A stretch of 62,650 bases of DNA, filler included, from Hausera hauseri (lineage: Eukaryota): NCBI GenBank assembly GCA_046269625.1. It is 10 parts of 10 records of this genome, joined end to end, with 100 filler letters (N's around TTAATTAATTAA, not from the genome) between each part and the next. Parts side by side here need not be neighbours in the genome. Positions count along the whole stretch, not along the records: positions 1 to 9,504 come from JBJURY010354375.1; 9 more parts are not named here. One strand, written 5' to 3'. Below are positions 1 through 53,845 of this stretch, piece after piece. The notes beneath the pieces were generated by a model, which did no database searches, was not told the DNA's origin, and was given only the letters and a program-made list of their open reading frames with translations. Within the stretch, counting starts at the first letter, position 1, and each line of letters starts with the position of its first letter. The position numbers and the translations under genes were made by a program.

Positions 1-146
1 CTGTGTGCTGTTCGTCTGCTAAACAAGATATAGACCAAACGGTAACAAAGCGGGACAAAAATCGTTCCGGCCTAGCTTCGTCAAACGATGAATCTATTGC
101 CAGAAATGGAGGGCCATGTCCTAGACCGTGGCACTACAATCATGAG

Positions 147-1550
147 TTTGTGTTAATGCATCAAATGATTTAAAATATCGCGCGCGCCATTTTCAAATAG
201 GTTTTCGACCATGACGAATCGATTGGCAACATCCGATTCTTCGAATAATGCACACATCATCGAATATTCGAGTTTGAATAGCCAAGTATTCGAGTTCGAA
301 TATTCTTTTCAATCATCTTACTTTTTATTCCCATTCCCCACATATGCTTTCCTATATATGTACGCTTAAAGATTTATTGATTTCCGCTTCATTACTCTTC
401 AAATGTACATTTTGCTTTATTCGAAATATTGATTTTGTATTTATATAGTACATTTTCATGAAATAATTTTATGCTTCTGGGGGTTTTCGAATATGAGGAA
501 TCGTTTTCCACCATCAGATTTTTCGAATAGTTCAAACTTCGATTTTCGAGTTCGAAAATCTTCGAATATCGAGTTTTCGACTCAAGATTCGAGTTCATCA
601 TACTCGATTTCCTATCTGTCTCCGCTCAATGTTGGATCGAATTTTGCGTTACTACGCTTAAATAACACTTTGAATAAATAAACATTTTGCATTTCGATCG
701 ATATTAATCAATAACTAATCGATAAATTTAAATTCGAACTGCACATTCATATACTACATCATATTTGCTTCCGATTGCACCCGGTCATGGGCGCTAATAA
801 TCCATATTGGAAATATCGGAAATTCGATATTATTGATTTTTGAACACTTGCACACATGTTTTTGCACTGCACACCACCCATCAAGGTGTATCTCTATGTG
901 CTCTATCCATCTGCTCTTGACCCTGATCAATTTCATCAATCCTACGCTGCACAATTGCAAAAGTGCGTAAAGTGAAAAAGTGCTCCTGCACACCGATCAA
1001 TAATTACAACACACTTGATTTGTGCACCATTTGATACTACATCAAGTACTGCACACGCCTATGTATGTGCCATATTCATATCATTGATTTAAAATTTATA
1101 CCGGAAAGGCCTATGGCGGTTTGGACCCACTTGCGAATTATTCGAAAATCAATCAATCGATTTAAATTCTAACTGCACATTCACACACAACATCAAATGC
1201 ACTACCGATTGCACCAGGTCCCGAACTCTAATGATCGATTTTTGATTTTTCAAAAATCCAATATTATTGATTTTTGCACATTTGCACATGTGCTGCACAC
1301 TTGCACTGTGCACCAATCGATGCATCTCGATGTGCTCTATTAATTAGCACTTTGTCCCGATCGATTCGGTCAACAGTGCACTTGCGGCGATCGATAAGTA
1401 AAAAGTGCAGAAATGTGCTTAGCAACGGTGCCTCTAGGCACTTTTTGAATCGATAGTGCACAGTGTGCACTATTGATCGACACATGTGCAAAATCGATTT
1501 ATCGATTACCCCTCACCCTGGTGGGACCGAACCGCCATTTTCACACTACT
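147..1550 (-). repeat. ~1.4-kb Polinton/Maverick-type terminal inverted repeat; outer end ...CACACTACT at 1550
   Basis: Collinear reverse-complement similarity to 31802-33247 over its whole length. Similarity stops exactly at ACTACT (rc AGTAGT), the typical Polinton terminus. Confidence 0.7.
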
Positions 1551-1591
1551 TTATGACAACTACTACACGAAATTCGCGAGCCGTGTAGATT

Positions 1592-2430
1592 GTGGAGAAA
1601 GGTGCTAAGTTGCTGTCGTCACAAAGATTGTCAACAAATGGTGACGTCCTCCGTTGTCACGTCTATCATCATCAGGAAGAGCATCACGATGTGAAAGAAA
1701 GTATGCATCTTATCATTATTGAGATTCTTGGGATATATAAGAATGTTAGAATCCCAACACACCGAATCGCCTCCGCAGAAAGAAAACTCATAAAGTTGTA
1801 TGATGAATATCAGCTACTAAAGAAGAGCCGAAAAAAGTCATTGGAAAGCTACAGTGTTAAAGAACAATCATTCAGCGATGATCTCTGGAAACTATTTGAT
1901 ATCACAACTAAGAATATGATGGAGATAATGACTAATGATGAGGATAAGCACTTCCTCACCACGCAAAGGATGGACGATGCCAAATGCCTAATGGCAGGAG
2001 TAGATAGCAAACTGGTGCAGAAAGAAGCCAAAAGAAGAGCTCGTGAGGAAGCCAAAGACAGATGTAAGTTGAATGAGGCTGAAAGATCACAACATCTCGA
2101 AGCAAGTGATGACTTAGAAAAGGGACTAGGAGGCGCTTCAACTTTATATGAAGCAATGATATGAGCGATGATGACACGGACATGAACTTCGCAGTTTCAC
2201 TTCCATCATATTTGGATCAGTCAAAAAGAATAAGTACAGGAGTTTAGCCAAGAATATAATAGCAAGCCCAGAAGTTGTTGGTGCTTTAGACAGGGCCAAC
2301 TTGTCTGATCGTGGAGCTATGTTTGTGGTGACATCAGCAGCCGAGGATTTGGCGCATTCTCTTGACGATCTAGCACTGTCTCAGAGCACGACAAGAAGAT
2401 CTAGAATGGCCATACGCATACAGGTGGCTG
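1592..2430 (+). mobile_element. N-terminal fragment of a cut-and-paste DNA transposase (hATm-like invertebrate family), decayed
   Basis: ORFs 1592-2164 and 2301- contain RIPT..KLIKLYDEY..LFDI..EDKHFL..QR..MAGVD and LDRANLSDRGA..LALSQSTTRRSR. No catalytic core is present. Confidence 0.55.
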
Positions 2431-2547
2431 TGGTACCGCGGGTACATGCACGACCTCAACTTTCTACAAAACGGCAGTCGTCGACCACCGCCAAGCTGAC
2501 ACAGACTTTTAGTGTGACCACCGCCCTCCACAATTTGAAATTGTGGA

Positions 2548-2868
2548 TTGCATATATTGGCTCCCGATATTCAAGACTTGCACTCCTCGTTGAGACAACT
2601 TTCTCTTATTTGCAATCCGATCAGAGAATCGCCCAATTTTCTATGTTCATTTTCACTGTTGGACAATCTTACTCTTGACAATACTTTGATCTCCACACTG
2701 CCTGATGATGTTGGAAATTTAATATTATTGCGATATCTTTCAATCAAACATACAAAGTTATCCTCATTACCTGCTTCATTTTCAAATTTGAAGAATCTCG
2801 TTACACTTAAATTATCCGGGGTGTATCCACCGAGAATTTCTCAGAAATTTAAACAGCACTTTCACTAA
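2548..2868 (+). pseudogene. Leucine-rich repeat fragment
   Basis: LTLDNTLISTLPDDVGNLILLRYLSIKHTKLSSLPASFSNLKNLVTLKLSG fits the typical LRR consensus. Confidence 0.8.
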
Positions 2869-2879
2869 AGTGAACTGGA

Positions 2880-4200
2880 TTGCTTTCTGTAATAAAACTC
2901 AAGTCAACGGAGGGGTATTCAATGAAAATAAGTCTCTGCATGCTTTTAAACAATTTGTTGATAATGACAGAAATCTTACATGACTCAATTTTAGGAATTT
3001 CAAAGTTATTTATTCGATTTTTTCCGCGTTTTATCGAATTTCATGTGGAAATCTGTGGCTACATTTCGGAAATATTCGATCTTACATTTTCTGTGCCAGG
3101 AGCATTGTTCAATTATGTTCCTTGCTTGCTGCCAGTTGATGTTAAGGAATCAAATTTACTATACCAGTTCGAATATTTACCATCGGGTTTGTTCAATGGG
3201 GCTCAGTTTCGTCTTTCACAATACTCAGACAGCTTCGTAATTTGGCAACATGGGTCTTTGTTGCGGAAATATACTGATAAAGCTCTAATAACAAAATTAA
3301 ATGATTATGTTGTCAACATATGTGCAAGGGAATGTTGGCCGGATAACATCCTGTTCATTATTCACGATGTATCTGAATTATTCAGTGGAGTAATATATGA
3401 ATATCAATTAACGTGTAGAAAATGCATAACTTGGAGAGATCCTGAACCGCATTTATTTAGCAAGTGTCCTTACACGTACATCTCAAGCTAAAACGGTTTT
3501 TCCCCAATGCCACAGAAATTTCCATGAAATGTTGGCAGATATGGACCATTCGCAATTGTCTAATTTGAGTACAGAATTAGCCGAGGAAGTACGGCAGTTG
3601 AGACAAGAATCTGATGAGGCGCAATTACGTGCATTTCAGGCGAATATCTTGACGGCAGACAACGTGCCCGGCATTTAACATCGGGACTGAGTGGTCTATC
3701 ATCACATATGCACCGTAGTCACATATACACTTGTGTACCAGAATTTCAGCCATACTTCAATAAAGTGATACAAATTTGGAAATTCGCAGGACGAACGGTC
3801 TATGATAATTCAGGTGTAAAAGATTTCTGTCCGCACAAGAACAAAATCAGACTCAGCACAAAATCAACCTCCCAAATATCATCAAAGGCATATACAGTAC
3901 TATGTGTTATTACTTTGAAAATAAGCAAGCATTACTTACAAATTTGAGTAATAATCTGTTTTTTAATAATCCTACCATTATTTCTATGCTTTTCGCCCAT
4001 GAAGTCGGAGACTTACTTTCGGCAACGTCTGATGACGACAATTTTTTCAACGACAAAACAAAATTCTACATTGCCATACCAGTCACCACAAAACGTAATG
4101 AACGTTTAGCAACGGATGCGAACTAATGCATAAAAGAGGGATACACTGATCTTCTGTCTTGTAAAAGTATTTTGGTAATTGATATTTTATCACCTGTAGA
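2880..4200 (+). pseudogene. ROCO-family COR C-terminal region followed by possible TIR-like remnants; intronless and disrupted
   Basis: FDLTFSVP..VPCLLP, YLPSGLFN.AQFRL.QYSDS.VIWQHGSLL and PDNILFIIH..GVIYEYQLTC resemble COR-B of invertebrate ROCO proteins. Downstream fragments (e.g. LLSCKSILVID) are only weakly TIR-like. Confidence 0.55.
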
Positions 4201-4699
4201 AAGTCCAACAAATATATTTTTCCCATACAACGTTGTACGCTTTATTCAAAGAAACAGATATCGATACGGGGACTGAGATGAAATCTCAATTTTACAAAGA
4301 TACGATTAAAGTAAGAAGTCTAGGGAAATTAACATCCAAACACGCACCAACAATCAGCGAATGATTACATGAAAATATTCTGAAATGTACCTTACCGACG
4401 ATCGATACAACGCGGTAACTTTATTCCCGTTTACATAACAATTCTAAACATCCATCTCAAATATGTGTGGCAAAGTCATTCACCAAATCAAACATACCTG
4501 TTGATTCATTCAAATACAATGTTCATGAACATCAAGAAGGATTGCCAGAGTAACATTTATCAAATTATTATACATCTACATATTGGTATTCGTTTATTTA
4601 TAATGCTAAACAAAGCTGGTAGTTTACATGAGTGCCATATCTCAGAACTATTATAGCTCGGATCACGACAGAGCTATCAATGAAAGAGCTATTGATGAT

Positions 4700-7600
4700 T
4701 TGGGTGAGAAATCGAGCGTGACCGCCCCCGTTGCGCCGCGTCCTTTACTCCTGTTTATCTTCTTCAATAATACACACCTACATACCTTCTATGCGCCACA
4801 CACGGATACCCCTCATCACCTTCACGCACATCTATCCTCTCTCCTCAACTCGTCAGACTTTTATCTCTCATATCATGGTTCTATACTTAATGTTCATGAT
4901 CAACTTTCTACATTTTTCTTCAAAATTATCCACCTCACTTTTCACTTTCGCCTACGGGGTGGATCTGATCCCGATCCTCCTTATGTTGAAAACCCCACTA
5001 AGACCAGATGTGGTCGTCGTCCTCTGACCCCACACCAAGTACATCTCCAAATCTTCTCTGCACCGATTTTTTTCTCGACAAGACGAATTCGAGTCGTACC
5101 TGGTTACAACTCCCTTTGCAATGGCTTAAAGCCAATCATATCACAGATTCCTTCTTGCGGGTGAACAATTTTCTGCTACTACTTCCAGCTAATATCAAGC
5201 ACCAAATTAATAATCTGGCCGACATGCTAACCTCTTCAAATCCATATGATATGCTTTATGAATTAATTCTGCACATTACCGGTCCTTAAATTGACAGCAT
5301 AATTCAAAAACACTTTAATAAACATGCCATCGGAAGCCAAAAACCATCGGATTTTTTTAAAACTGCAATATCTCAACTGAGTTTCTTAGGCGCCACTCCT
5401 ATAAACAATGCCGATCTTCTTCGTCGGTATTTTCTTTCATCCTTGCGAACCTCTATCAGAGCGCTGCTCACTGTAGTAGACAACTCAACGGCCCTTGAGA
5501 AGCTCGTCTTATTGGCAGACAAAAGTTTTGACATTTTGCAATCTAAAAGTTCACAACCAGTAGCTACAGCAACCGCTCACACACCTTCACGCACAAATAA
5601 CACTTCATTTTCACAAAAATTGCAAATGATGCAGCAACAGTTTGACGAGTTACATCAGTCAATTTTGGCCATTAATACCCAACTAAATAATCTTAATGGG
5701 CCTCGATGAAGTGAAACCAAACCTTCAATGGAGAGAGTATTTCCAGATACTCTGCTCGATCCATTTCACCAGGCGGACGCATGACTTGCTTTTATCACAC
5801 GCGATTTAAAATAGATGCTAGAAAATGTTTTTTGGGTTATCGGTTCTACTGCAAACGGTACGCTGTGAACAACCCTATTTGCGTCTATCACAATAAGTTT
5901 CAGTCACGGGCTAGATCATGTGTGCCTGGTTGTAAACATTACAGCGATAAATCTCCTCGCTTTTCCTCCTCCTCTTCCTTTTTCCCAAAACCTTCAAAAA
6001 ACTAATAACGCCGCCAGATTTTACGGCACATTCTGTCTTAGACAATATCGCTCAAACTCCTGGTCGTTTCAACCCCGCCTCTGTGATCTTTTTGTTAAAA
6101 GCTGTACAGTTATGCAGAGATACTTCACATATTGACTTCCTCATATACTCAGGTGCTGCCTTTTCGCTCCTTCCATTGTCCTTCATTCCTACATCGACCA
6201 TGATTTCCTGTCCACCGCTTTTCACTGCCAGTGGTCAACCGTTGCATATTGCAGGAACCACGGAATTGACTTTCACATTTGCCAACTTTCCAGATAAGTT
6301 TGTCTGGAAGTTCCACGTGGCTAACATTAAATCTCCCATAATAAGCTCAGATTTTCTTGCTGCACATGATCTATTGATCGATTGCAAATACAGCTGTCTT
6401 TTGTGCAGGAACTCAATTGCAACTCCAAACATGTGTCTCGTAGACAATTTAGCGAGAAATTCGTTGCACTCATCTGTGAGCATGTTGAACGCTTCGTCAT
6501 CTATAAAAAAAATTTCCGATAAAGTTGGTAATATTTCAATTATGAACGACAATCATAAATCTATTTTAAAACAAAAATCCAAATTAGGCGTCGACAGCAG
6601 CGATGCCAGTTGCTTTCCATCAATCATTGGAGCTGTTCTCTCTAATGACATGACTCCTTCATTCTTGTCTCTAGACTCCAATCTTAAATCATACGTCACA
6701 ACGTCTTGCTTTCACATAGTTAAAAGGAACGTCAACTTCAAGCCTCCATTTACAACTTATTATCACATAGTAACAGAGCATCAGAGGCCGATCAAACAAA
6801 AGGTCAAACCTTTGTAGCCAAGCAGACGTAAAGCTGTAGAACTGGAATTTAATAAACTGGAAAGGTCTGGCAGCATTGGGAGATCAAATTTACCGTGAGC
6901 TTTTCCTCTTCATGCAGTTGTAAAAAAAGATGGTACCTATAGGCCATGTGGCGACTATCGAAAATTAAGCAATCTAACTATTACAGATGCCTATCCACTA
7001 CCACTCATTAAAGACATTTTTCATAGCCTTAACAACACCAATACCTATTATACCATTGATCTGCATAAAGCCTACCATCAAATTCCTGTTGCCCCTGATG
7101 ACATTCCAAAAACTGCTGTTATCACACCATTTGGTCTTTACGAATACATCTTCATGCCTTTCGGCCTTTGTAGCGCATCTCAGACTTTTCAGCGCCACAT
7201 TGACACCATTCTTTCTTGTCTTGATTTTGCTCACCCATACATATATGACATATTAGTCGCTTCCAGCTCCATCAAACAACATCATAAGCACCTTAGAATT
7301 ATTTGCCACAGATTGCATCAAAGCAACCTGCAAATTAATTTCGCCAAATGCAATTTCTCCCATAAACGCGTCAACTTCCTAGGCGACATAATTACTCCCT
7401 AAGGTCATTTACCTCAGCCTGATCGTTTACAACAATTGAAATATATGACATAATCAATTACTACTACCGACATGAGGAGCTTTCTAGGGATATTGCACTT
7501 CGTACACAAATACGTGCCACACCGCTGCAAACTAACTGCATCCTTCTCACACCTCTCATCCGGGAAGAAAAAACAACTAATCTATTAGACTCCCAATCTA

Positions 7601-9504
7601 GTTAATCAATTTGATCGCCTTCGTGATGGTCTGAAATCCGTTGAAATCCTGGCTTTTCCAAAACCGAACGCGGAACTAATATTAACTACCGATGCCTTAA
7701 CCACAGCCACTGGTGCGGTATTACGCCAAATACACAGTGGTGTGGATGAACCGTTAGAATTCTATTCCCGAAAGCTTACGCAACCAGAAAGCCAATACTC
7801 AACATTCGATCGTGAACTCCTGGCCATAGTTTTAGCGATAAAGCGTTTTAAGCATTTGCTCCTACCACGTCAGTTTGTCATATAAACCGACCATAAAAAT
7901 CTACTTCATATCATGACGTTAAAACAGCCATTACCCAGGCAAGAACGTAAGATATCATATCTGTTGACATTTAGTTTTCCCATGAAATATATTTCTGGCA
8001 CCGAAAACTTAGTAGCAGATTTTCTATCGCAGTCGGTGAACGCTATTACAGTTCAGCCAATTTCTTCCTCTGAAGTCCTGAGAAGTAATCAGCCATCACC
8101 TGGTATTCTCCAAGCCTTTCAATCGGTTGAGATCATTGATGGCATGGCCTGCGACACATCAAAGTCGACTAATAAGAAAATCATTCTTGCTCCATCGTTA
8201 CAAAAGACGCTTTTCATTGACTTTCACTCTCTTCATCATCAGAGTTCAAAAGCCACATTTCGTCCACTGCAACGCCACGTTATATGGCCAACTATGTACA
8301 GGTCTTGGCCAAGGGATATGTAGCATGTCAAGAATATAAGGTTCATAAACACCTTAAACCATTACTTTACCACTTTCCCTGCACATCTCGTTTTGATAAC
8401 CTTCATTTGGATTTTGTCGGTCCTTTGCCATCCGACAACCGCTATCAATATATCTTATCCTTGATGGATCGCGCTTTTCGCTGACCTAAAGCCGTTCCGC
8501 TTCGATTAATCAACACTAAGTCAGTAGCAGATGCATTTATCAAGATATGGGTCAGTCGCTTTGGATTACCACATCACATCATAACGGACCAGGATCCGCA
8601 ATTTCAAGCTGATCTTTTTAAATCATTAGCAAAGCACTTGGGGATAACCCATTTCCATACGACGCCGTACCATCCCCAGGCAAATGGTCTTTTGGAGAGA
8701 TTTCACCGCACCATGAAGATTTCCTTAAAAGTCCTGGCAAACAAAAATCGTAATTAGACCTAAATTTTTCCTGTTGTCCTACTCGGTTGGCGCAACACGC
8801 CGTTCCCTATCACAGGTTGTGTCCCGGCTGAATATCTCTTTGGGACACCAGTTCGGGCCCTGTTTCAGCTCTTCAATTTCGATGATAGTCCATCAAATGA
8901 AGTTATTCGTGCGGCACAGTCCCATTTTGTAGATGTAAACTCAAACGCCTTTTGCCGTCTTATAAACAAAGACAAATCTTACATTACAGAGGACTTATAC
9001 CCAGCCAAGTTTGTATGGCTGAAAAATCCGTCACCTGGTTTTCGGTCTCAATACGTTGGCTCTTACAAACTACTCAACCCTTCTAAACACATTGCTACTC
9101 TTTTACGCAAGGACAAACCTCAAAATATACGCATTTTTAATCTTAAGCCAGCATTCTTTGTTGACAATGACCAGGATAACAGCCTTGCTTCAAATCATAA
9201 TTTTAACTTCGCCCCCCTCGAGCTCCCATCCAATTTCCTCGATGATTTCGATCCGTCGCAGAAATCGCACTCGAGTTATCCTCACTTCCATCTACTGCTC
9301 CTTCACCACTTACTTCGCCGTCATCGCCTACACATCTACACACGCAGCCTGCAGTCATGTCACCTTTATCTTACGATTCGCTTCCATCTTTTGTTTCGTC
9401 CTTTTCGCGTGATCCTTTTCCCTCTTTAGCTTCTTCTCCACTTTCACCTCTTCATGAAGCATCCTCCCAAAACACCACAAAGTCCAGAGCATCTCGACTT
9501 CAAA
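4700..9504 (+). mobile_element. Ty3/Gypsy (CsRn1-like) LTR retrotransposon, family A copy 1, decayed: Ubl-gag-PR-RT-RH-IN
   Basis: Gag with two CxYHxxF...C motifs (5781-5935). PR IDFLI(Y)SGAAFSLLP. RT YRPCGDYR, MPFGL, PYI(Y)DILV. RH LTTDA, YSTFDRELLA. IN HLDFVGPLP, ITDQ, YHPQANGLLERFHRT. Many stops and frameshifts; no LTR visible. Confidence 0.92.
4740..4963 (+). CDS. Ubiquitin-like domain ending RLRGG, immediately N-terminal to gag
   Basis: ~73 aa with a ubiquitin-fold pattern (FYLSYHGSIL ~ QRLIFAGKQL) ending HFRLRGG at 4949-4963. Confidence 0.7.
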
Positions 9505-9604
9505 NNNNNNNNNNNNNNNNNNNNNNNNNNNNNNNNNNNNNNNNNNNNTTAATTAATTAANNNNNNNNNNNNNNNNNNNNNNNNNNNNNNNNNNNNNNNN
9601 NNNN
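9505..9604. other. Artificial contig spacer (N-run + TTAATTAATTAA). Same spacer at 16782-16881, 22067-22166, 28225-28324, 33490-33589, 38465-38564, 47634-47733, 51971-52070 and 56385-56484
   Basis: Identical 100-nt linkers with stops in all six frames. Confidence 0.99.
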
Positions 9605-9796
9605 AGGCTCGTGTTTCGATTTTTACTTTTTGGGATTTTGTTGATTGGGGAAATGATTGTTTCTCTCAAAGGTTTAAAATTCAAAAAGGTCAATTTGGAA
9701 TTCTGATCGATTTTTTGATTTTTTGATTCAGATTTTTGGGTAATTAAGAGATCCTAACATAATAAAAAATTTTGAACAACTGTTGTTTACTTTCCA

Positions 9797-10460
9797 ATGA
9801 GTAATTTCAAACGATCCAATTCTGATTCAGCAGACATACCAGAAGGCGGGTATTTTTCAACCCTACCCAAGCTGGGCGATGACATGGACGGAGTGGATGC
9901 GCACGCTGCCAACATGGCGACTTACGCCACAATGGACATCTTCGCGAATCAATTGTTGCCCAACATATTCGGGAAAGGTGACGACGTGGAGAAGTTTGCT
10001 AAAGTATGTGAAAAATTCTTTAAATATATGAACACCCCGGCGGCAAAGCGAGAGATCATGGTTGAATGCCTCTTGGAGGAAGATGCACTAGAAAGATCGA
10101 GACAGTAAATGCAAAAATAACGGGATATTAAAACAGACTATGGAAGGCTTTCGCCCGATCCTCAACGCTGTGCGAAGATCTGAAAGAAGCGCTCAAGTAC
10201 AGAATGAATGGAGCGGAACCGGAAGCTTACTTCAAGGCAATCGAGAAATTTCTGGATAAAGTCATGAAGCACAATCTTTCACGCGAGGCTCCGAAAGAAG
10301 AACTATTGTTCCAATATTGTAACAATAGACAGATTAGAAGAAAAATATGCCTCAGTGACAAACGAGACGCGGAAACAATAAAGGAGAAAATAAGGAAGAT
10401 ACACGAGGTAAAGATTAAGATAGAAGAAGTCAACACGGTTAAGGCGTATCCAAAAGACAA
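9797..10460 (+). mobile_element. Gag-like fragment of a different LTR retrotransposon, truncated
   Basis: LPNIFGKGDDVEKFAKVCEKFF and Y(R)MNGAEPEAYF resemble capsid/major-homology-type motifs. In-frame stop at 10106-10108. Confidence 0.5.
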
Positions 10461-10771
10461 AAATTTAAATTCATCAGGAAAGATTTATTTAGATTTAAAC
10501 AAAATTATTGAATAATTATTAAATGTAATTGTAAGTTGGGAGATTCTGTGAAAATTCCCCACATATAACGCAGTCATAGATTAATTTATCAATTTTACTT
10601 TTACGTTTAGCTATCAATTACAGCACTACAATCCTAAAAGTATATTTTCTTTAAAATGGGACGAATTTGGAATATGATTATTGTTTGTTATTTAATAAAC
10701 AAACACCAAACGAATAATGAAAAAGATTAAACATAAATCCAAACCAACATTTTATTAATTATCTTTTTAAA

Positions 10772-11560
10772 TTACAACAAATTTCTTTCCACATCTCTTT
10801 TTGCTACAAATCGACTCTTCAATACACTTATTCTAACATTCAACAATCGAACAATTTCACCACATTCATCCAATTCGTCTTCCACAGGTCTGTTGAAAAA
10901 TATTCTAATTTGTCTTTCAAAATCTGCACAATATTCATTCAACGAATCCAATATTTCCAGTAAAATTTCCCGTAAAATGCATTGAAACTGAAATTCTCGA
11001 ATTAGCTTTTGGCCTCTTTCCAACACAGGATAGGAGAAATTTTTGAATTCTTTTAAAACCTGTGAAATATTTGCATTAATCTGTGTTAATTTATCAATTG
11101 ATAACGTAATCCAATTTCTAAACTGACGAACAGTTTGTAACACGGATTTTTGTATTATCGGTAAATTTTGAGATTGTGAATCGCATAAAAATTTACGGGA
11201 TTCCTCAATACAGCGGAAAAGATTTTCTGACACACACTCGGAAAATTTTTCTAAATCATCAATTCTTATTTCAGGATTTTTCGATGGATCTTCTAATGAG
11301 AGTATCTGGAATTTTAATGTTTCAAGAGCAGCATTTATTAATTCTTCATAATGCATATGCATATCTATTACCTTTATCGCATTAGGTCCGTAACAGAGTA
11401 ATGTAGAACCTATTGCGGGTGTTGACAACAAACACCAATTATACACGATACTCTCATTGTTCATGCAGTTTTGGCACATGACAGTATTTGTGGGCTGATC
11501 GAATAAGTAGTAACCGTAAATATGGATTTGACAAATAGTGCAGAAATATTCCGAATACAT
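10772..11560 (-). CDS. Intact 262-aa hypothetical protein: N-terminal CxxC..CxxC zinc site plus coiled-coil region
   Basis: Uninterrupted ORF (CTIC...CQNC) with AATAAA on the minus strand just downstream (~10750). Confidence 0.55.
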   Translation of the reverse strand: MYSEYFCTICQIHIYGYYLFDQPTNTVMCQNCMNNESIVYNWCLLSTPAIGSTLLCYGPNAIKVIDMHMHYEELINAALETLKFQILSLEDPSKNPEIRIDDLEKFSECVSENLFRCIEESRKFLCDSQSQNLPIIQKSVLQTVRQFRNWITLSIDKLTQINANISQVLKEFKNFSYPVLERGQKLIREFQFQCILREILLEILDSLNEYCADFERQIRIFFNRPVEDELDECGEIVRLLNVRISVLKSRFVAKRDVERNLL

Positions 11561-11938
11561 TATTGATAAATATTTTCCCTTACATATACTTCAAATGGTA
11601 CGAAAAATTGTTAAAAATAATTTTATCGGGTATAATATTGGTGGAAAATGTATGGTTAAATATCATTTTTATTTTTGACAAATATTTTCGACTAATTCAA
11701 TATTTTTGTGTGATGGTGGTGGAATTAATTATCAACAGTAGATTTGATCACAACAACACTTTTAACTTTCGGTAATCCGATGTAATTTATGACTAACTAG
11801 AAAAACATAAGAATCTAAAAATATGACGAACCAAAATATAAAGTCAGACATATATTTAAGTTAATACAAATAAAATCTGGAATGAACTGCGTGTTTTCAG
11901 CTTTTTTGTTGTGTAGAATCAATAAACGTACAACAAAA

Positions 11939-12178
11939 TCATTTCTTCATCACTGAGTATACAATTTCTTCTGAATCATCCATAAGTGTTGGACTAAAGT
12001 GTGATTTCGATGCTGACTTTGAATAATAGTTGTCATCCGAAGGGTTTGATTCCAATTCAGTAGTCAAATCGACGGACATGCCATTGTCAATACTTTGTCG
12101 GAATTCTTGAGCAATAATTGCTGTTATATTCTCTTGCTTTTTTCATTTTGTGCGACGATTCTGAAACCAAATTTTTAC
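11939..12178 (-). pseudogene. Terminal exon of an NK-class (NK7/NK1-like) homeobox gene with a Trp-to-stop change
   Basis: Pyrimidine tract + CAG acceptor, then VKIWFQNRRTK*KKQENI. The frame stays open to TGA at 11939. Canonical Q|VKIW intron position. Confidence 0.8.
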
Positions 12179-12337
12179 CTGAATATAAAATAAAAGGTAT
12201 TTAACGAATCTTCTTATTGTAGTCAGTAGATTAATGTTGCATGTTTTTGTAAATGAAATGAAAAAAGAAAACTATTTCGGAAATATAAATTTGAACAGAT
12301 TGAAGGATGTACGATTGATACTACACAATAACTAAAT

Positions 12338-12641
12338 CAGTGGCCTGCCCAGGATTTTCCTAAAAGGGGTTTATGTAATACTTATTACTCAATCTTGCAT
12401 ATGTAGTTCCCTATAATTTTGATTCACTGCACTTTTTGCATAAATGGTTCCCAATGTGAAAATTTTGTCATTTTCAAATTTATTCACGTTGAAATGTTTA
12501 CAAAACGTGCAAGTATTTAAAATGTTAAACGTCACCAAAAATAAAATTTTTTAGGCTATAGATTCCATGAAAAAAATTGTAGTAAGATCGCATGGGGGTG
12601 GGGGAGTTAACGTACCACAACCCCCATTCGGCACGCCATTG
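12338..12641. mobile_element. hAT-type MITE, 304 bp
   Basis: TIRs CAGTGGCCTGCC / GGCACGCCATTG and a perfect 8-bp TSD AACTAAAT (12330-12337 and 12642-12649). Confidence 0.88.
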
Positions 12642-12798
12642 AACTAAATTTGCACTTCGTGAGGATATAATTAAGAACAGAAATTCTAAATTTAAATTAG
12701 ACAGATTTTTAAATTTAAATTAAAAGTTTGATTTAAAAGTAATATTAAAAGTCTGATTTAAATTTGGAAAATTTGTTTCCAAATAAATAATTTGGATA

Positions 12799-12955
12799 AT
12801 AATAAAAAATTTTCTACAACTTTTGTTTACTTTCCAATGAGTAATTTCAAACGATCCTATTCTGATTCATCAGACATGCCTGAGGGCGGGTATTTTCCAA
12901 CCCTACCCAAACTGGGCGATGACGTGGATGGCGTTGATGCGCACGCTGCCAACAT
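12799..12955 (+). repeat. Diverged direct copy of 9759-9915 (5' end of the gag-like ORF)
   Basis: aataaaaaatttt...tttactttccaatgagtaatttcaaacgatcc...gcgcacgctgccaacat is shared between the two sites. Confidence 0.9.
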
Positions 12956-12999
12956 AAATTATTAACATCGTTGATATATTTGATATCGAAACTAAATGT

Positions 13000-15900
13000 T
13001 GACAAATGCTATGTTTTTCGCTCTTGGTGTGTAGATGGGTGTTTCATAAACATAATATTGACTAAAGTCTTATGATCAGTTTGGATAACAAAACTGCGAG
13101 CTGTGAGAAGTGGGAGAAGTGTTTTAAGGCCAGAACTATCGCCAGTAGTTCTAGATCGAGTGTGGAATATCAATATTCTGGTGGTGATTATTTTCTAGAG
13201 AAAAATTCGAGTGGTTGGTTTTCGCCTTTGTATATCTGATGTAACACAACATCGACTGCGGTGGTTGAAGCGTCTGTGGTAAGAATAAGTTCAGCATCAG
13301 GTTTAGGAAATGCTAGAATTTCTACGGTTTTGAGACCTTTGCGCAGTTTATCAAACTTATCAACCAATTTAGGTTTCCATTGAATAGATTGATGCTTTTT
13401 TCTATTTCCTAAATGTGTGAAAGGTGCCGTGAGTTCCGAACAGTATGGAACATATTTGTGGACAAAGTGTAAAGTCCCTAAAAGCACCTCGTTTCTCTTG
13501 TGGTTCTTGGTAGTTGTGTGTTTTTAAGAGCTTCGACACGTTCTGACTGAGGAGAATGGTCATTTGCTGAAATGATGCGTCCGAGAAAGTTAATACAGTT
13601 TGGAAGAAGCTGCATTTTGCAAAATTAATCTGTAGATTATGGTGGTTAAGTCGTTGGAAAATAGAACAAACGTGTTCCTCGTGCTGCTTGGTTGAAGACG
13701 AAACGATTAAGATATCGTCAATGTATGGGTGTACGAAAGTGAAGTCTGAAAGAATAGAATCGATGTGACTTTGGAAGGTCTGCGCGGCGTTGCGTAAATT
13801 AAATGGCATATAAACGTATTCATACAGGCCGAAAGGTGTTGTAACAGCAGTTTCCTCGATGTCCTCAAGTGCTGCAGGAAGTTGATGATATGCCTTGGCT
13901 AAGTCTGTAGTTGAATATACCGTAGTAGGGTTGAGCCGGTGCAGGATATCCTTAATAAGTGGTAAAGGATATGCATCCATTATAGTTAAAGTGTTTAGCT
14001 GACGGTAATCACACCATGGTTGAAAAGATCCATCCTTTTTGAACAACGTGCAAAGGCAAAGACCACGATGGTACAGATCCGTGTACAATGCCGGAGCGTT
14101 CAAGGTCTACAAATTCCACTTCAACAGCATGTCTACGACGTGGTGACAATGGACGCACCTTTTGATGAATGGGTCTTTGGTGTTGCGTTATGATGTGGTG
14201 AAAAGTGCTGTTTGCAGGTGTGAAAGTTCGGTCCTTCTGGATTGAGCGAGGACATTAAGTGCGTATGTATTGCTGTAGACTTGCAGGCAATTGTGAGAGA
14301 CTGGGTGATGTTGGTGTTGAGTCAATATATGTAGTGACGAGTGATGTTTGCAAATTATTTGCTAGTATGAAATCAAGTGGAATTTTGTGTAAGATAGTAC
14401 CATTAAAAATAGTGTTTGAAGAGGTAATGTGGTCTAGTGAATTTACCGAACCAACAAATCGTAGCTGTCAAAACCATATCTCGACTGAATATTAATATTA
14501 TGATTAAAAAATTTACGGAACGAAAAATGATTGTTATAATATTTTGGGTTAGTTTTACGGTTTCTGAGTATAGACTTCCGTGTGAAGACCGTTTGCTTGT
14601 TAGCAGATATACTATTTATTTTCTTGTTAAAATATCCAGTGGTGTTACTTTTCAGACATCGTTGCTTGCAATTAACTAAAAGATTATAATGGGATAAGAA
14701 ATTGGAACCTAGGATTGCTGTGCGGACGTTAGCGATGGTAAGCGTCCAATGAAACGTTGAATCACATTTTTGTAAGGTGAACGATAATTTAGGTGTACTT
14801 GACATGTCAAGTGGTTGTCCTAAAGCTGTAAATAATGATTTAGTTTTGAATGGTGAATTTTGTACAGGGAACGTGAGTGGTAGAAAAGAAACCGCAGCTC
14901 CTGTGTCACTAAAAAAGTCTATGGATTGAGTTGTTGGTGTAGTTATCACAGACTTTAGTGTAAAGACTGCAAAAGAAGTGTGTCGGCAGTTAGTATTAGA
15001 GAAGTTGCCTTTGCCAGACTGCCGTGAGAACTGGGGGCGAAATTAGATTTTGGGATTGGTGAGTTCGAACGACTATTAATAGAGAAAATTGAACGTCTGT
15101 CGTTGGTGTGGTTAGTGTTGCTCTTATAGGTGCAACCTTAAAGATATTTCTGGGCGTGAAATACAAATTTAGCATGATAGATGCGAACAATATTGTCTGC
15201 ATGTAAATTTGGAGTGTAATATCTACACTCCAAAACGGCATTTATTAGCTTTATTATTAAATTTGCTATGATAATAGCACACAAAAGACCGTTCAGGCGA
15301 CGGTGACCGGTTTTTTGAAACAGAACGAACGCGGTTAAAATTAGGAACGCTTCGTCGCAGTAATGAAAGATCGTTCAACTTATTATTAATGTTATTTATC
15401 GTCTGTTGTAGGGCCGAATTTTCAGCGAGTATTTGGCTCAACTGTGGCTCTATTTTTGTATTGAGTTGATTGTCGCTTGTTGTGACTGCGGCCGATACGA
15501 TTGGTTGGGAATTCAACTGTAAAACTTCATGTGCATTATTAACCAATTCGCCTAATTTATCCAATACCGTGAATTCCTCAACAACGTTAAGAAGTGCCCT
15601 AATTTGCATAGACAACGAGTTTAAGAAATGTCGTCGCAGAATGTCTGAATTATGCTGCTTGGTTAAACCTAGTGTTTGCAAGTGGGTCAACGACGTGCGC
15701 AGGAATTCAGAAGGCTTTGCGTTCCCATTGCCTTATCGTTAAAGAAACGATGGATTATAGAGTCCATGGACGGCTCTGTAAGTTTTAAAACTGCATTGTA
15801 AAGCTGAGTATAATGATATTGATGGGATTGTGGATACAAGTTCTGATGTTGTTTGGCAGAAGGAATAGAAGATTATTAATCTTATCCAAAGAATCAGTAA

Positions 15901-16684
15901 TGTCACAGGATTGAAGCCATAGTTGGTGAAACTGCAACCATATTTTACTAGAATTTTGGTTATCAATAAAATATTCAGTACACTGAGAGGGATTAGACGG
16001 ATAAAAACCCGTTTGCTTTTGCAAAGGAGTCGAACAGAGGTTTTCAGGAGTTATCGACAGTTTAAGGCTAGAATGTTTGTTGAGGTAAATGATTGATTTA
16101 GGCTTAGCAGGATCGTCCGTAGTGTTAATGGTGGAAGAGAATTGCATTCCACCACGGATTCGAGAATTGATCTGAAAACAGAGGGAGAAAGGTGAAAAGG
16201 TGATGTCTTGAAAACTATTAAAAACGAAACCATTGTGAGTCAGATAGAAATCAAAGATATGGGTTATTATACGAATGTGGTCGTGTAAATGCGTTATATC
16301 TATATATTTTGTTATATTTAGAGTATGTATTAATTCATTATTTAAAAAACGGAAAATGTAAACTGGTGGTAGTAGGAAGCCGGGCAGAAAGTGTGGCATC
16401 CCCACGCATTGCTCGTCGTGCCATACGGCTGCCGGATGGACGGCCGGAGGCGTGGCCGTACCAAGACGTCGTCGAAATGTTGGAGTTGTAATGTGATGTC
16501 TGTCGGAGAATTCGACCGACGATGCTGCAGAAGAGATAGAAACATTGTCACATGGATCGATTACTCCAAAAGAAATTTGTAATCTATCAATAGTTTGATA
16601 AATGGGCTGTATGGAATTGAGATAGAAAATAAAATCCGTTGATAAAGTATAAAAGTAAATGTTCGGCACTGTAGTTTGTCTCAA
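13000..16684 (-). mobile_element. Ty3/Gypsy family A copy 2: Ubl-gag-PR-RT-partial RH, decayed
   Basis: Ubl ending SRIRGG (16148-16162). Gag homologous to copy 1. PR FFSDTGAAVSFLP. RT MPFNLRNAAQTFQ, PYIDDILI. RH LTTDAS. Truncated before the integrase. Confidence 0.92.
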
Positions 16685-16881
16685 TGATCGAATATTTTGA
16701 TGCTATTGTAGAACACTGGATGTACTTGAGACATATCTCACAACTTTCTGATTAATAAATTATGAAAATGTCATATCGTACNNNNNNNNNNNNNNNNNNN
16801 NNNNNNNNNNNNNNNNNNNNNNNNNTTAATTAATTAANNNNNNNNNNNNNNNNNNNNNNNNNNNNNNNNNNNNNNNNNNNN

Positions 16882-17880
16882 ATCATTTTATGATATAATT
16901 CCGTTATTCCGACTTGTCCTTTATAGTAGAAGTAATCGTCTTTATTTTTCAGGTAGTCCTCAATCCGAACATCCTGCGTTTCTAATTTGTAGGTTCTTGA
17001 GTTTATTTCCGTTTCGGCTACAAAGAACGCTTCGTAGTTTGCGGCGAACATTACCACATCGCAGCGAGTTATCATTTTTTTACAAATTTTAGTCCATATG
17101 GGTCAGAAATTAATATAGTAGTTGTAGGATGTTCCGATACATCTTCGCGTGTTCTTGAATTACTCTCCGATTTGTCTACATAACGTTTTCCCGTAGTTTC
17201 ATTAAACTTTAACTCTTTAATTTTGATAAAGTTACAGCTCCTTCCAGAGGGAGGTTCCCATATTATAACCGAACTTCTAAAAGAACAGGTTCCGTCTTGT
17301 AAATGACATTTCTGATTCTTAGTGTATAATTTAGTGACACTATGGAACATTACCTTTTGTGATCGCATTTCTGATTCATAGAAATCCATAACTACCACGT
17401 TTGATTCTAATCCTTTTCCGGTATCGTATTCTGCTCCATTACAATGTCCGGTACGCATATCCAGCCTTCCAGCTACTACTTTCTATGCTATGATTATTTT
17501 TCCTGGTTTCATTTCTAATTTCATACTGTCCCATTGTACTCTTCCGTTCTCTTTAGCTTGTTTACAGTGTTGGCGTTCTAAATTCATTGGAATCAGCGGA
17601 GTAGTTGGATTGATTATAGAGGAATGTCCATGTATTAGTCCACAGTGGAAGATACTACGCGATCATTTCAACATGCACTCCATTCCGTCTAATGATATCA
17701 ATTCTTGTTGTTGATACAGGAAGTAATTTTTTTCTCTTGTTTTCAATTTGTGTGGTCTGGCATCCTCGCATGTTTCCAGATCCATTAAAGAATATCTCTT
17801 TCCTAGTTTAAACTTATCGCAATCATAGACGGTTACCCCGATTATACGCTTGATTAGCATCATTAAGGTGAGCTAGCTAA
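16882..17880 (-). pseudogene. env: Chuvirus-like (class III, gB/G-type) envelope glycoprotein, N-terminal part
   Basis: Hydrophobic signal followed by VTVYDC..YSLMDLETC, CGLIHGHSSII and CHLQDGTC..SVIIW..CNF. Confidence 0.72.
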
Positions 17881-20800
17881 TTAGCCAATTCGACTCATTT
17901 TTCCGACCTCCCACGTCTGACGTCGTCAGGTTACGTAACATGTCGTCGAATTTATTGTTATTTCGTTTGTCTTCTTCCTTGTCAAACAGTCTCGCCCAAT
18001 TTACTTCGCAAGGCATTCTTCTTGCTGTTCTCCGTGCTAAGCTTATAGACCTATTAATTTCATTTTCTCGATTAGGATTTTGATAGCTAAGTATAGTAAC
18101 ACCTTTCTCAATTCTTTATTCGTGTTTTCTACCATGATCTTTTTGATTACTGATTCATCAGTTAGATTGCTTTTCGATAGTTTAAAACTCGAACTTCGCA
18201 TCATTTTGGCTGCATCGAAAATTATCTTTTCTTTATCATCTAACACCTCCCCTCGAAAACTAGAGTAATTCACAATTCGTATTAGATTTTTCATTAACTC
18301 GCCTAATTCCTCGTTATCTGGGCTAAGAGCCGGAATCGACATCTGTCTCAATTCTCTCATTAATTCTCCATTGTAATCCACTTCTTACTGCAGTATTCTG
18401 AGTCTGCCTACTGGGCGTTTCGGTCTTGGACCCTTAGTGATTGTTTCACTCAATGGTACTAAATTTATGTCGTACTGTTCCTTATATTCGTCCGTTTGTA
18501 AATACTCAAAATATAATGAGGCGTCTCGGACTCCCATGATTTGTCATACGCATTTTTACGTTTTGGCTTTGCGTGTAGCTTTATCTTTTGTCTGTTCGTT
18601 AGCTATTACTACCACTATCCGATTTCTTTCGTCAGGAATGATCCCGACGTCTATCAGTTGTTTGAGAGTATTTTACCTCTAAAATAAAATCTGTAATTTA
18701 AATCGTTCGTTCCACCATTGTTTATTAACCATTCTCTTACATCTTTTACGTAGGAATATGTAATCAACTCGAATTCCTTTTCGTCCATCCATTCGGAAGA
18801 CTTTAGCGTACATCCTTATCAAAAGTTTCGGCACCGTACTATAAATCGTGTTTTCGCTAGATAATTTAGTTAAAGTTGGAATAAGTTGTCGTAGTTTATT
18901 CTCGGTAATATTTACGTTAATTAATTCAATCAAATCCTTTTCAGCTAGCGATGAATCCAGTAGCATTTCCACATTAAATCTCCTGTCTTGAAGGTATGTT
19001 TATATTTCGTTTAGTTGTACTGGAGTCATAGGTTTTCCGGCAAATATTTCGTAGAAGTATGCATCCCATTCGGGTTCGTTTCCGACATATGGAAGTCGGT
19101 AGTCCACAAAGACCATATTGGCTCTTTAGATGTTCTCCCGAATTTCCTTTAATTTAGGTTGTATTTCTTTCATTTTCGAAGTTCGGAAACCTACTCCATT
19201 TCCGCAGGCGTACTGAATCATCTTCAATAATTCACCGAATTCGTTAGAGTCAATCAGTTCTTTTTGGTGATAATCTGTTAATTCAAAATCACGTCCTTTT
19301 GCCATCTTTGTACAAATTCTCGTTTATTATTAATCTCGGATTCGGTAAAAGCGTATCTGTTTCGATAGACTCCGAGCTCTTTTGTTATTTCGTCTAACCC
19401 CGTCTCTCTTTGTTTTGTCTTGATACATGTTTCTTCTACTTTTTGTATCTTGTGCATCAATTGCCTCATCTGCTTATTGCTGATTTCTGCCATTTCCACT
19501 AATAAATAGGCTAACTCATACAGTTCATTTATAATCTTTGAATCAGGGTCCATTGCATCCGATAATTTCTTTACGAACTTGTGTTCCAGGAAACTAAAAT
19601 GTGGGTCGTTTTTTATTTCTATCAACTTGGTATGGAAATTCTGGTCTGAACCGGCCATCCATTCTTGAGGTCTGTGCAAAAATTTTATCGCATCCGTTAG
19701 CGTATCTTGATGCCCCGGACAAATGTTCAGGATTTCAATGTCTTGTGCAGAAATTTCTTCGATTGGTTTTCCGGTTAAGTATTGAATCCTTTCTAGTCGG
19801 ACGATCCTTAACTTTGAATTTATATCATAAATCATACTCCGTTTCTCCGTGAAGTTCGTTTATTCAATTAATTTGTAGATTTTCTCCATCGTCGACGCTA
19901 GTCGTTCCTGTTCCATAAATTTTAGTTGTCGTAGCGCTTCGAATTGAGTTTGGATGTCTATTTCTATTCGCAACGTGGCTAAATTGTATGCACTTTTCCC
20001 TAGTTGCTTTTTCACCGTTGGGTTACTTTGCGGAAATTCTGTTTTACTGTCTTCTACCAATTTTGTCAGCCGCGTTACTAATTCGGACCATTCCGACAGT
20101 TGATTCGCGATTACTGGTTTTGCCATTGTAGCCTTATCTAGCATCTTATATGCATCTTCTAACTCATCATCTGGTCCTCTTAGGAAATTCATAATCCGGC
20201 CGATTTAACTAAACTCGTCTTTATACTCCTCCAATTCTACGATACAAGCCTTAATTACATTTTGGGTCTCCTCGTTGTTTGGGAACATAATTCGATTTTT
20301 CAGACCATAAATCTGTGCTCGTATTTCATTTTCTATTTTAATTCCATTTTCTAAATTCGTATATCGTCTAGGTAAGCAAAGGTAAGTTTAATCATCTCCA
20401 TTAAAGGGGAAATATCTACTATGTCTATACCCAATATTTCTATGTCGATATTACTTCGATTACTAACCGGTTTTTCTTTGAGCCGGTGAATCATTGCTAG
20501 GCAAACTTCATCCATCATACGTTCTAAATTACGGACTACTCTCTTCAATTTTGGGTTTTCTTCCAAAGTTGATAATAGCGTTTGAGCCTTGGTAATTTTT
20601 GCATCGACACTGTGTTCATTTTTACTCCATCCTTCCGAAAATTCTACCCCGCTTTTAATCCACGCTTCCAATTCCTGCTTCCACTTTAACAACGTTTCGG
20701 TCGATACCTCTTCGGGTTGTTTTATGTCAATTGCTTCCGCAAACTTTCCTTCGCTACGCAGTTTCAAACTTTTATATAACTTCTCAGCGAATTGTTGTTC

Positions 20801-25385: not shown

Positions 25386-25625
25386 TTTTAGTCTTAATAC
25401 AAAGCATGATGATAAAAATTTATTAACATTAGATGGATATGAACAAAACAGAATAACAATATAACTTTAAATGTAAACTATATACAGTGATTACACGACA
25501 TAGAATGTTAGAAGTCATATATATCAGAACAAATCAGTAAGCAGATGACAGAGATATTCAGAAACAAGGGTCATAACAAAATATTTACACACGAATAGAG
25601 GGTTAGTAAGGTATTCAATGTATGT

Positions 25626-28193: not shown

Positions 28194-28427
28194 TCGATGA
28201 GGTTTTAAATCATGTTTGATTCGTNNNNNNNNNNNNNNNNNNNNNNNNNNNNNNNNNNNNNNNNNNNNTTAATTAATTAANNNNNNNNNNNNNNNNNNNN
28301 NNNNNNNNNNNNNNNNNNNNNNNNAAAAGAAAAGCAACAGCAGCATCATCAGGAGCAGCAATAGCAAAAGGAACAGATACAACAGGAACCCGACATTAAT
28401 GTCAAGTATGATCTGAACAGATCGTAC

Positions 28428-47500: not shown

Positions 47501-47633
47501 CCTTCTTGTCCACATGTGAAACAGACTAAATTGCCATTTCTTCTAACTCTTTGTCAGCCATCTTCATTTAATGGAGATTTAGATCTACTCGGATTTTTAT
47601 TGTAGGTTTGCTGCGGTGGAGCCTGTCTTGGGT
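38565..47633 (-). mobile_element. Env-bearing Gypsy family B copy 2: gag(CCHC)-ORF-X-env-PR-RT-RH-IN, decayed and cut by contig ends
   Basis: CFTCGQEGHIARSC (~47480-47525); glycoprotein 43620-41800; PR ALIDTGSEISLI; RT TLDLQSGY, VMPFG, AYLDD (~39795); RH end YKPGNKHINADAL; IN H..AGH..YYWP..CEVC, SMDIVGHLP. Confidence 0.92.
41800..43620 (-). pseudogene. env: Near-complete chuvirus-like class III envelope glycoprotein with C-terminal TM
   Basis: YD(C)..YSLMDLEMC; NDCKLDLEIMRTKLSL; GVFGRVTGGVLLMYEC..RCIQEL.V..VTPITRVL; TM FMIFGHI..FLAIYLLIQLVEAIIQAIING. Confidence 0.78.
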
Positions 47634-47881: not shown

Positions 47882-47927
47882 AATTGTTATAAACGTTGTT
47901 GTGTTAATAAATATTATTGTTGAAATA

Positions 47928-48413: not shown

Positions 48414-48479
48414 CGTTATATCAAAGTTATATTGTTACTGAATAAATGTGTTATGAAAAATAGTTGATTTTATAAAACT

Positions 48480-52739: not shown

Positions 52740-53235
52740 CAACAAATGCGTTTAAAGCGTAACGTCGTAAGAGATCGTAATTATTTTGTTTGGTAACGCC
52801 GAATGTTTGCGGTTGAGTGAGAGAGGTTCTGAGAAAATCTGATGGTTTTTGTTACCCATAGCGTTATTATAAAGATGGGTGTACGGGTCGCATTGTTGAA
52901 AGATGTCTAAAATATCGTGAAGAGAAGTCTTTACTGAGTTTGATAAGAGGCGAAGTAAGCTATGAGCTTTGGCTGAGGGATCAGTAATGTTGTTTGACTA
53001 CAGCCAAAGTTTGTGAAAGTTAAGACAGGTTTTGCTGGACTTTTCATGGTCAATAAAGTATTTTGTGCACAGAGAAGTGTGTTTGGACGGCAGGGTGGAA
53101 GATGTATAAGTGGCGAAAGTAGATAGCGTGGTGGACATCGTTGATTTTTGGTGAAAAGTGAAAGGTGATGGTTTATAGTTAGTTTTGTCACTAGTGTCAA
53201 TGGTGGGTGAAGAATCCATGCCACGGGCAGTCGGT
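52740..53235 (-). mobile_element. Gypsy family A copy 3, gag N-terminal fragment preceded by RLP(G)G
   Basis: MDSSPTIDT..CTKYFIDHEKSSKTCLNFHKLWL and KPSDFL match the gag of copies 1 and 2. Confidence 0.75.
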
Positions 53236-53845
53236 CACGCTGTGATGTAACCGAAACAACATCTTTGTTACGCGTACTGTGAAGAATCTCTTCCAACAAA
53301 TCTGCATAATCTCTAATATTTGAATCACTTTTAGGGGTCGGAACAATATCAAATATTGTAACAAATATACTTATTCCCATAAAGTGAGAAATTACCTTAA
53401 GGCCTGCTGTCTTTATTTCATTTTCTCTTAAATCAAATGTGAGGCACTGTAATGTTTCAGCAAGGTAGTCAGCAATTGCTGTGCCGCCTTTGAATGTTGG
53501 TTTGCAACATGGCAGACACGGCCTTAGTAATGAACGATTAGTCACAAAACCTGCACGAAGTGAATGGATAGTATCGCTAGAAATCAGGTGGTTGTCGATA
53601 TTGAGGAACGGTAAACGTTGTGCAACCTGTACTATATTGGCCAACGCTAGAATTCCATTGCAATGTATGAAGTTGCATCGGGTGCTGAGACTAGCCAAAC
53701 CGTTTCCTGGCCTTTCATTTTCGGTTCCATCGTGTGGATTTATGGGCTGATCACAAATACCATCGGCGGTGTGGCCTGACCCGACGTTCCATAGGGAAAT
53801 ATGTTTGACATTCAACAACTCCAAATGACGAATGACATTGAGCAA
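53236..53845 (-). pseudogene. RI-like leucine-rich-repeat ORF running into the family A gag junction
   Basis: LPFLNIDNHLIS, GGTAIADYLAETLQCLTFDLRENEIKTAGLKVIS. Confidence 0.5.

Follow-up and report, generated by a model that had tools for sequence, protein, structure and literature searches.

The question raised by this locus is why a ubiquitin-like (Ubl) domain with a Gly-Gly (GG) tail lies in front of the Gag of a Ty3/Gypsy retrotransposon, and whether a host deubiquitinase (DUB) separates the two proteins. The window, the whole stretch of 62,650 nt of Hausera hauseri DNA that was analysed, is composed of 10 contigs joined by N44-TTAATTAATTAA-N44 linkers (9505–9604 and eight more), so element copies in different segments are not genomic neighbours. 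The G+C content of these contigs ranges from 31 to 45%. Three copies of the element were identified. Copy 1, a decayed Ty3/Gypsy element with the Ubl domain at its front, is located in segment 1 (1–9504). Copy 2, also decayed, is located on the minus strand of segment 2 and shares 65% DNA identity with copy 1 in the reverse transcriptase (RT) region. Copy 3, absent from the earlier note, is a Gag remnant in segment 9. The features of these copies are listed in Table 1.

Table 1. Features of the three element copies and of nearby host-derived pieces, in positions of the window.
Feature	Position	Strand	Evidence
Copy 1 ORF, stop-to-stop, first ATG at 4628: short leader, Ubl, RLRGG and linker, then out of register with Gag	4610..5164	+	
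Copy 1 Ubl (beta-grasp) domain, ~75 aa	4736..4963	+	PDB profile matches, AF2 model, Foldseek, leave-one-out 68 bits (0/300 shuffles)
Copy 1 RLRGG tail; predicted DUB cut after the second Gly	4949..4963	+	GG in 11/11 aligned domains
Copy 1 linker, 95 nt, from GG to capsid; holds the frame break of this copy	4964..5058	+	Alignment of relative P0142
Copy 1 Gag remnant: DUF7041-type capsid and C-terminal Cys/His fingers; one stop, one frame change	5059..5933	+	Family via relatives P0124, P0125, P0127
Copy 1 Pol remnant: protease, RT, RNase H, integrase; 9 in-frame stops, one frame change	6011..9264	+	
Copy 2 Ubl ending RIRGG (16162–16148), then Met; in frame with Gag N-terminus	16148..16372	-	
Copy 2 ORF: leader of 110 open codons, Ubl, linker, capsid N-terminus	15785..16702	-	
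Copy 2 remaining Gag and Pol, several frames, truncated after RNase H	12955..15812	-	
Copy 3 Gag remnant; no Ubl detectable ahead of Gag	52744..53222	-	
Copy 3 RI-type leucine-rich-repeat (LRR) host piece just upstream of the Gag remnant	53378..53701	-	Best E 0.011; 12/13 PDB matches overlap, mostly LRR proteins
Fragments of a host Roco-type gene (LRR and COR-B) ahead of copy 1, possibly cargo taken up by the element	2539..3491	+	

The order of Gag followed by Pol, with protease, RT, RNase H and integrase in succession, is that of Ty3/Gypsy elements. The intact relative P0142 aligns to copy 1 at 4730–5038 in the Ubl frame and at 5050–5706 in the Gag frame, indicating that copy 1 is broken in the linker. 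Since its Gag core lies in another frame, copy 1 as it stands encodes no Ubl-Gag fusion. The domain and the RLRGG tail that the earlier note described in copy 1 are thus present, but the direct fusion to Gag is not, as Gag follows in the other frame behind the linker. An ATG in the Gag frame is found at 5008. A programmed frameshift in copy 1 was considered and rejected, because all intact relatives are in frame and copy 1 is broken elsewhere too. In copy 2, a single frame runs from the leader through the Ubl domain into the capsid N-terminus and the breaks come later, which agrees with the in-frame RIRGG-Met junction reported previously. For the window copies, which are truncated, paired LTRs, a primer site and a polypurine tract were not located using common primer motifs. 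No LTR head or primer site common to the upstream regions of the three copies was found either, the best score being 35 where shuffles reached at most 33, and no tRNA genes were found. A word-index search with copy 2 gave zero finds among 129 candidates.

Ahead of Gag in copy 3, the Ubl profile scores about 0 bits in all three frames. The motif KPTFKGG was considered as a Ubl tail in this copy and rejected, as it sits within the LRR match. In copy 3 (52744–53869, minus strand), Gag lies directly behind the RI-type LRR piece, and a tail-like remnant straddles the frame break between them. About 1.2 kb ahead of copy 1, the LRR and COR-B matches follow each other at short distance and no Roc match separates them; this region looks like a compressed host Roco fragment. 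Neither the LRR and COR-B pieces near copy 1 nor the LRR piece of copy 3 was seen in frame with a Ubl domain.

Several other features were observed in the window. Two copies of a different Gypsy-type element (16882–22066 and 38565–47633) share 65% DNA identity; the latter encodes a zinc-knuckle Gag and carries a Monjiviricetes-type fusion glycoprotein between Gag and protease (PF24664, best E 1e-22). An 847-aa ankyrin-repeat ORF, with a C3HC4 RING finger ORF downstream, is located at 24173–28268 on the minus strand. The region 29868–31446 matches DNA polymerase B of the organellar or viral type, and 47734–51970 and 56485–62650 have 2.4 kb in common at 83% identity; these three regions are possibly Polinton-like remains. 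A 1.4-kb repeat with an internal 434-nt duplication is shared in opposite orientation by 146–1542 and 31839–33248 (80% identity), and its segment 1 copy is followed by transposase-like ORFs (1589–2678). A piece resembling the exon of a homeobox third helix (KIWFQNRR), followed by a stop, is found at 12150–12200 on the minus strand.

The Ubl domains of copies 1 and 2 align end to end and share 32–33% amino acid identity (E 1e-8), as expected from the homology claimed for them in the earlier note. The copy 1 domain alone matched ISG15 in the PDB end to end but weakly (9/10 matches, E 0.76 or worse). With a profile built from the two window domains only, all 19 matches were Ubl proteins, the best being ISG15 (E 0.0036); without the tail, all six matches were to FUBI, weak (E 0.8 or worse) and restricted to the first half. 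With relatives included in the profile, 59 of the 60 matches listed were ubiquitin or Ubl proteins, SDE2 among them (E 0.012). The 11-sequence profile, whose alignment includes P0126 from another Gag lineage, matched single ubiquitin at E 9.4e-7. In a leave-one-out analysis, each of the 11 Ubl domains scored 19–68 bits against the profile of the other ten and beat all 300 tail-keeping shuffles. The domains share 18–48% pairwise identity; GG alone is invariant, and F, Y and R are almost so. The Pfam cut-off is reached by no single Ubl domain, which may be why the domain has been missed so far. A protein atlas search with P0124 95–185 returned no usable match.

The fold was predicted with AF2. 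The lone copy 1 sequence gave an all-helix model (pTM 0.39), which was set aside as uninformative. When the 11-row alignment was supplied, AF2 predicted a beta-beta-alpha-beta-beta arrangement (pLDDT 81, pTM 0.65), with strands at 4–11 and 14–21, a helix at 26–37 and strands at 42–46 and 68–71. Foldseek with this alignment-based model placed ISG15 first (E 1.8e-6, TM 0.80). Region 4736–4963 of the window is a real Ubl domain with a predicted beta-grasp fold, in line with the ubiquitin fold proposed earlier.

The tails of these domains were then compared. R[LI]RGG is found at two places across the six reading frames of the window, whereas 100 shuffles gave 0.11 on average and never more than 1. 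The GG on which the earlier proposal depended is present in all 11 distinct Ubl domains, P5 is Arg in ten and Lys in one, P4 is L, I or V in 10 of the 11, and P8 is hydrophobic throughout (11/11), while P3 is free (R, C, L, Y, H, K). The residue following GG (P1') is Ser in six domains, Met in three, Gly in one and Asn in one, and is never Pro. DUBs are not known to cut ahead of Pro, and at an N-terminus Ser, Met and Gly count as stabilising residues. This GG is the sole GG run in P0123, P0142, P0124, P0125, P0127 and P0144 as well as in L001, L002, L004 and L031, whereas P0126 and L070 have one extra GG upstream; the Ubl-Gag proteins are mostly Gly-poor. The elements therefore carry the RxxGG tail with DUB-recognition residues and the non-Pro P1' of a cleavable Ubl fusion, and the in-frame join to a downstream protein is found in copy 2 and nine relatives but not in the decayed copy 1. 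In the available text on human SDE2, alanine at GG, R73 (P5) or L70 (P8) blocks cleavage, alanine at L74 (P4) halves it, and residues past the site are irrelevant (PMC13572447). At the sequence level, the conserved tail positions in these elements are those needed for SDE2 cleavage, and the match is exact in kind.

To retrieve relatives, a Ubl+Gag profile was searched against 1.84 billion representatives using HMMER, and five proteins were returned. All five encode a Ubl domain and xxGG directly ahead of Gag in one ORF, with the sites RLCGG/S, RLLGG/M, KAYGG/N, RLLGG/G and RLRGG/M. Among the relatives, P0125 and P0127 owe their match to Gag and were thus not picked for their Ubl. A follow-up profile search added five proteins that all lack a Ubl, namely three DUF7041 Gags of the ordinary kind, a fragment and a chimera, and four scans of viral contigs gave no locus. 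The relatives score 16–22 bits against DUF7041 (PF23055; E 2e-4 to 0.012), below the Pfam cut-off of 28 bits, and the window pieces gave no match. The Gag-family profile still finds true DUF7041 Gags, suggesting that the Gag of these elements is a diverged DUF7041 relative.

Metagenome contigs were also scanned with a Pol alignment, which was meant to avoid selection for the Ubl. At least 589 pattern rows were obtained and 213 were confirmed, and the best 80 of the 213 yielded a Pol-selected sample of 79 loci. In 44 of these 79 loci (best 80 of 213), the contig covers the start of the capsid together with the frame ahead of it. Five of the 44 (L001, L002, L004, L031 and L070, of which L001 and L002 are nearly identical; best 80 of 213) encode a Ubl, R[IV][RKH]GG/S and Gag in one ORF. 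The remaining 39 of the 44 (best 80 of 213) have ordinary Gags without a Ubl, and the Ubl profile gives their ORFs ≤0.8 bits. An RT tree of 106 rows was constructed from 76 of the 79 loci, 28 hand-chosen Pol hits out of 120 and both window copies; L011, L046 and L070 contain too little RT and were left out. In this quick, midpoint-rooted tree, the window copies, their closest Pol relatives (72–81% identity), L001–L004 and L031 form one 25-row clade (SH-aLRT 99). The label of P0013 in the tree was borrowed from P0142, solely on the ground that the two contigs have the same length. The Pol piece of L070 shares 74% identity with that in L031. A label-clustering test on the tree was not significant (6 changes, 65/500 shuffles), with the 18 unlabelled Pol-only rows of the clade counted as Ubl-lacking. 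The Ubl is kept across elements whose Pol proteins share only about 45% identity. As judged from these sequences, the Ubl-GG unit is restricted to one RT clade and is clade-wide there. P0126 (760 aa) has a leader of 225 aa and a Ubl ending RLRGG/M before a different type of Gag (weak Retrotrans_gag match, E 0.046), and represents a possible independent origin of the same Ubl-GG device.

Polypurine-tract-, LTR- and primer-site-like signals were identified in L031, L070 and L001/L002, each of which has one LTR on a circular or tandem contig. The LTR start of L031, L070 and L002 is recognisable by a polypurine tract and TGT, and the primer-site motif, presumably a tRNA-Leu site, lies ~300–340 nt further on. 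In three relatives, the first ORF is already open within the LTR and stays so across the primer site. The crossing lies at codon 91 of both L031 and L070 and has another phase in L001, so that two phases occur. The three leaders comprise 192, 154 and 136 open codons at 73–77% AT, with a chance of staying open of 2e-7 to 6e-6, and their other two frames contain 5–18 stops. The leader proteins have no common sequence beyond the primer site. In L031 (5417–6002) and L070 (2489–2950), the primer-site motif at codon 91 encodes the same short peptide and the rest of the leader is unconserved. The only Mets before the capsid in L031 are codons 37 and 50, both within the LTR, and neither L031 nor L004 has a Met between the Ubl and the capsid. 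A Met stands right after GG in 3 of the 11 domains and shortly before the Ubl in copy 2, P0125 and L001/L002, indicating that some members can do without a long leader. In copy 1, the leader has just 42 open codons (P 0.08).

In P0123 and P0142, ~630 aa of host-derived sequence precede Ubl-Gag in frame. This cargo consists of an N-terminal part of DIS3L (residues 44–361, E 4e-25) and a CNOT1 domain piece (439–550, E 5e-19), a fusion observed in two contigs of one protein cluster from metagenome assemblies, where chimeras occur; P0145, for example, is a bacterial domain joined to half a Gag. The leader or cargo protein that the earlier note placed ahead of the Ubl thus has direct sequence support in relatives, in the form of long open leaders and an in-frame host-gene mosaic. 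In run X1, the summed contig depth is 47–92 over 3500–4681, 1050–1500 over the Ubl and 3000–20000 over Gag and Pol. The jump from ~90 to 1050 at the Ubl suggests that the Ubl belongs to the repeat and that the upstream part is far less shared.

These observations are probably explained by a decayed Ty3/Gypsy lineage whose first frame encodes a leader, a Ubl, GG and Gag, and in which a host DUB likely cuts after GG, freeing Gag from a disposable leader. We infer both the cut and the nature of the enzyme from the motif and the fold. Ribosomes would begin ahead of the Ubl, in many cases within the LTR or at a start codon supplied by host mRNA sequence that the element had captured, and would pass through the primer site into Ubl-Gag. 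The Ubl would then fold and be cut after GG by a host DUB, as in SDE2, FUBI-eS30 or pestivirus ubiquitin, and Gag would be released with an identical, defined N-terminus regardless of the upstream sequence. Because the Gag N-terminus would be fixed by this cut, the 5' end may vary or take up host sequence while the capsid is left unspoiled, which would be the benefit to the element.

A first alternative accepts the cleavage but places its purpose in the released piece, with the leader-Ubl and its free GG acting as a modifier, a DUB decoy or a carrier of captured host domains. Retention of the entire beta-grasp fold, beyond the tail, in 11/11 domains would suit such a product, as would the length and stop-free state of the host pieces in P0142 and the several ubiquitination-related domains described for Burro elements in the available text of PMC6431247. 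Conjugated modifiers, however, do not diverge in this way, with 18–48% identity and little beyond GG held constant. The leaders also have no protein sequence in common, and the cargo consists of truncated parts of DIS3L and CNOT1. We therefore consider a functional released product improbable.

The Ubl may instead stay attached to Gag, where it would assist folding, hold Gag levels down by targeting the protein to the proteasome or serve as a domain of the particle surface. Uncleaved Ubl domains, e.g., those of the Rad23/Dsk2 type, do target proteins to the proteasome, and copy 3 points to possible loss of the domain. An integral Ubl, however, has no reason to keep GG (11/11), Arg at P5 (10/11) and a non-Pro P1' (11/11), and a foreign leader of 630 aa on every capsid subunit, as in P0142, would be hard to assemble. 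A permanently attached Ubl is accordingly quite improbable in our view.

It is very unlikely that the Ubl is just a relic left by the capture of a host gene, or an upstream ORF in its own right, with Gag starting at its own downstream Met. The out-of-frame state of copy 1 with its Gag-frame ATG, and the Met following GG in 3/11 domains, would fit such a start, but the nine relatives with Ubl and Gag in one ORF already largely refute it. The missing Met between Ubl and capsid in L031 and L004, the persistence of the Ubl despite the divergence of Pol, and the rise in depth at the Ubl, which travels with the repeat, also argue against a relic. Finally, cleavage by the element's own aspartic protease rather than a host DUB is hardly credible, because retropepsins, although they do process Gag polyproteins, usually cut hydrophobic-hydrophobic or aromatic-Pro sites and not RxxGG, and would have no need for a conserved ubiquitin fold.

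If release of Gag by a host DUB is true, this retrotransposon lineage delegates the first maturation step of Gag to the host ubiquitin system rather than to its own protease or start codon, and depends on a host enzyme that could control it. It would also offer a mechanism for tolerating host-gene capture at the 5' end, and thereby a route for exon shuffling and gene transduction. More tentatively, Ubl-GG could act as an inbuilt "cut here" adaptor, making Gag independent of whatever lies upstream. The LTR and leader would then form a swappable slot, where host promoters, start codons and coding pieces may be taken up and expressed as freed, GG-tailed proteins while a normal capsid is still built, and unrelated Gag lineages such as that of P0126 may have hit on the device independently.

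The main text of the eLife paper PMC13524379 does not contain the word "ubiquitin". No description of Ubl-GG before a retrotransposon Gag was found among the papers listed by full-text literature searches, as judged by titles and abstract starts; subscription journals, Repbase and supplements may mention the domain. The elements resemble ordinary Ty3/Gypsy elements with a DUF7041 (PF23055) Gag in the PR-RT-RH-IN order of Pol, the separate Gag and Pol frames, the DUF7041-type capsid and the C-terminal Cys/His finger. In those ordinary elements, which we take to be CsRN1-like, a few dozen codons lie between the Gag start and the capsid, and a Ubl is absent (39/39 loci; best 80 of 213).

In ubiquitin-ribosomal protein and FUBI-eS30 fusions, a Ubl is joined head-to-tail with a structural, RNA-binding protein and is removed after GG. 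The elements share this arrangement of a Ubl and GG ahead of a structural, RNA-binding protein, whereas those fusions are cellular housekeeping genes without an upstream leader or cargo. Burro/GYPSM1, a planarian giant Gypsy element, also has a Ub/SUMO-like domain in its polyprotein; in the available text, its 4,900-aa Gag-Env-Pol has an N-terminal Gag and carries this domain downstream, between MATH and BCL-2, with no cleavage role proposed (PMC6431247). The elements studied here, in contrast, are ~5 kb where the whole unit is in view (L031), have no env and carry the Ubl before Gag, and thus do not qualify as Burro elements. Ginger and Helitron elements encode OTU or Ulp1 proteases and not a Ubl-Gag fusion, according to the accessible part of PMC2836005.

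In cytopathogenic pestiviruses (BVDV CP Rit, Osloss and CP1), an inserted ubiquitin is cut by cellular hydrolases, freeing NS3, as described in the available part of PMC8310069. As in the viruses of that account, a ubiquitin unit within a polyprotein would give the next protein its proper N-terminus, the cut being predicted for the elements here, and host sequence may sit ahead of the ubiquitin (an S27a piece in the viruses). The viral insertions were acquired recently, in single strains and before NS3, and their ubiquitin is almost unchanged, whereas the Ubl of these elements is highly diverged, fixed and clade-wide in a retrotransposon, and located before the capsid. SDE2 carries a diverged N-terminal Ubl that is cut after GG by the DUB USP5, according to the available text of PMC13572447, and the hydrophobic P8, P5 Arg, P4 Leu and GG required there are matched in sequence by the elements, in which the cut is predicted. 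In SDE2, which is a cellular gene, the Ubl forms the extreme N-terminus and GG precedes Lys, whereas in the elements a variable leader comes before the Ubl, making it internal, and the residue after GG is Ser, Met, Gly or Asn. Cleavage of a Ubl after GG is thus a known processing principle, and these comparisons point to its probable use in a new setting. The Ubl-GG unit before Gag is itself a real and clade-wide feature, seen here in dead copies.
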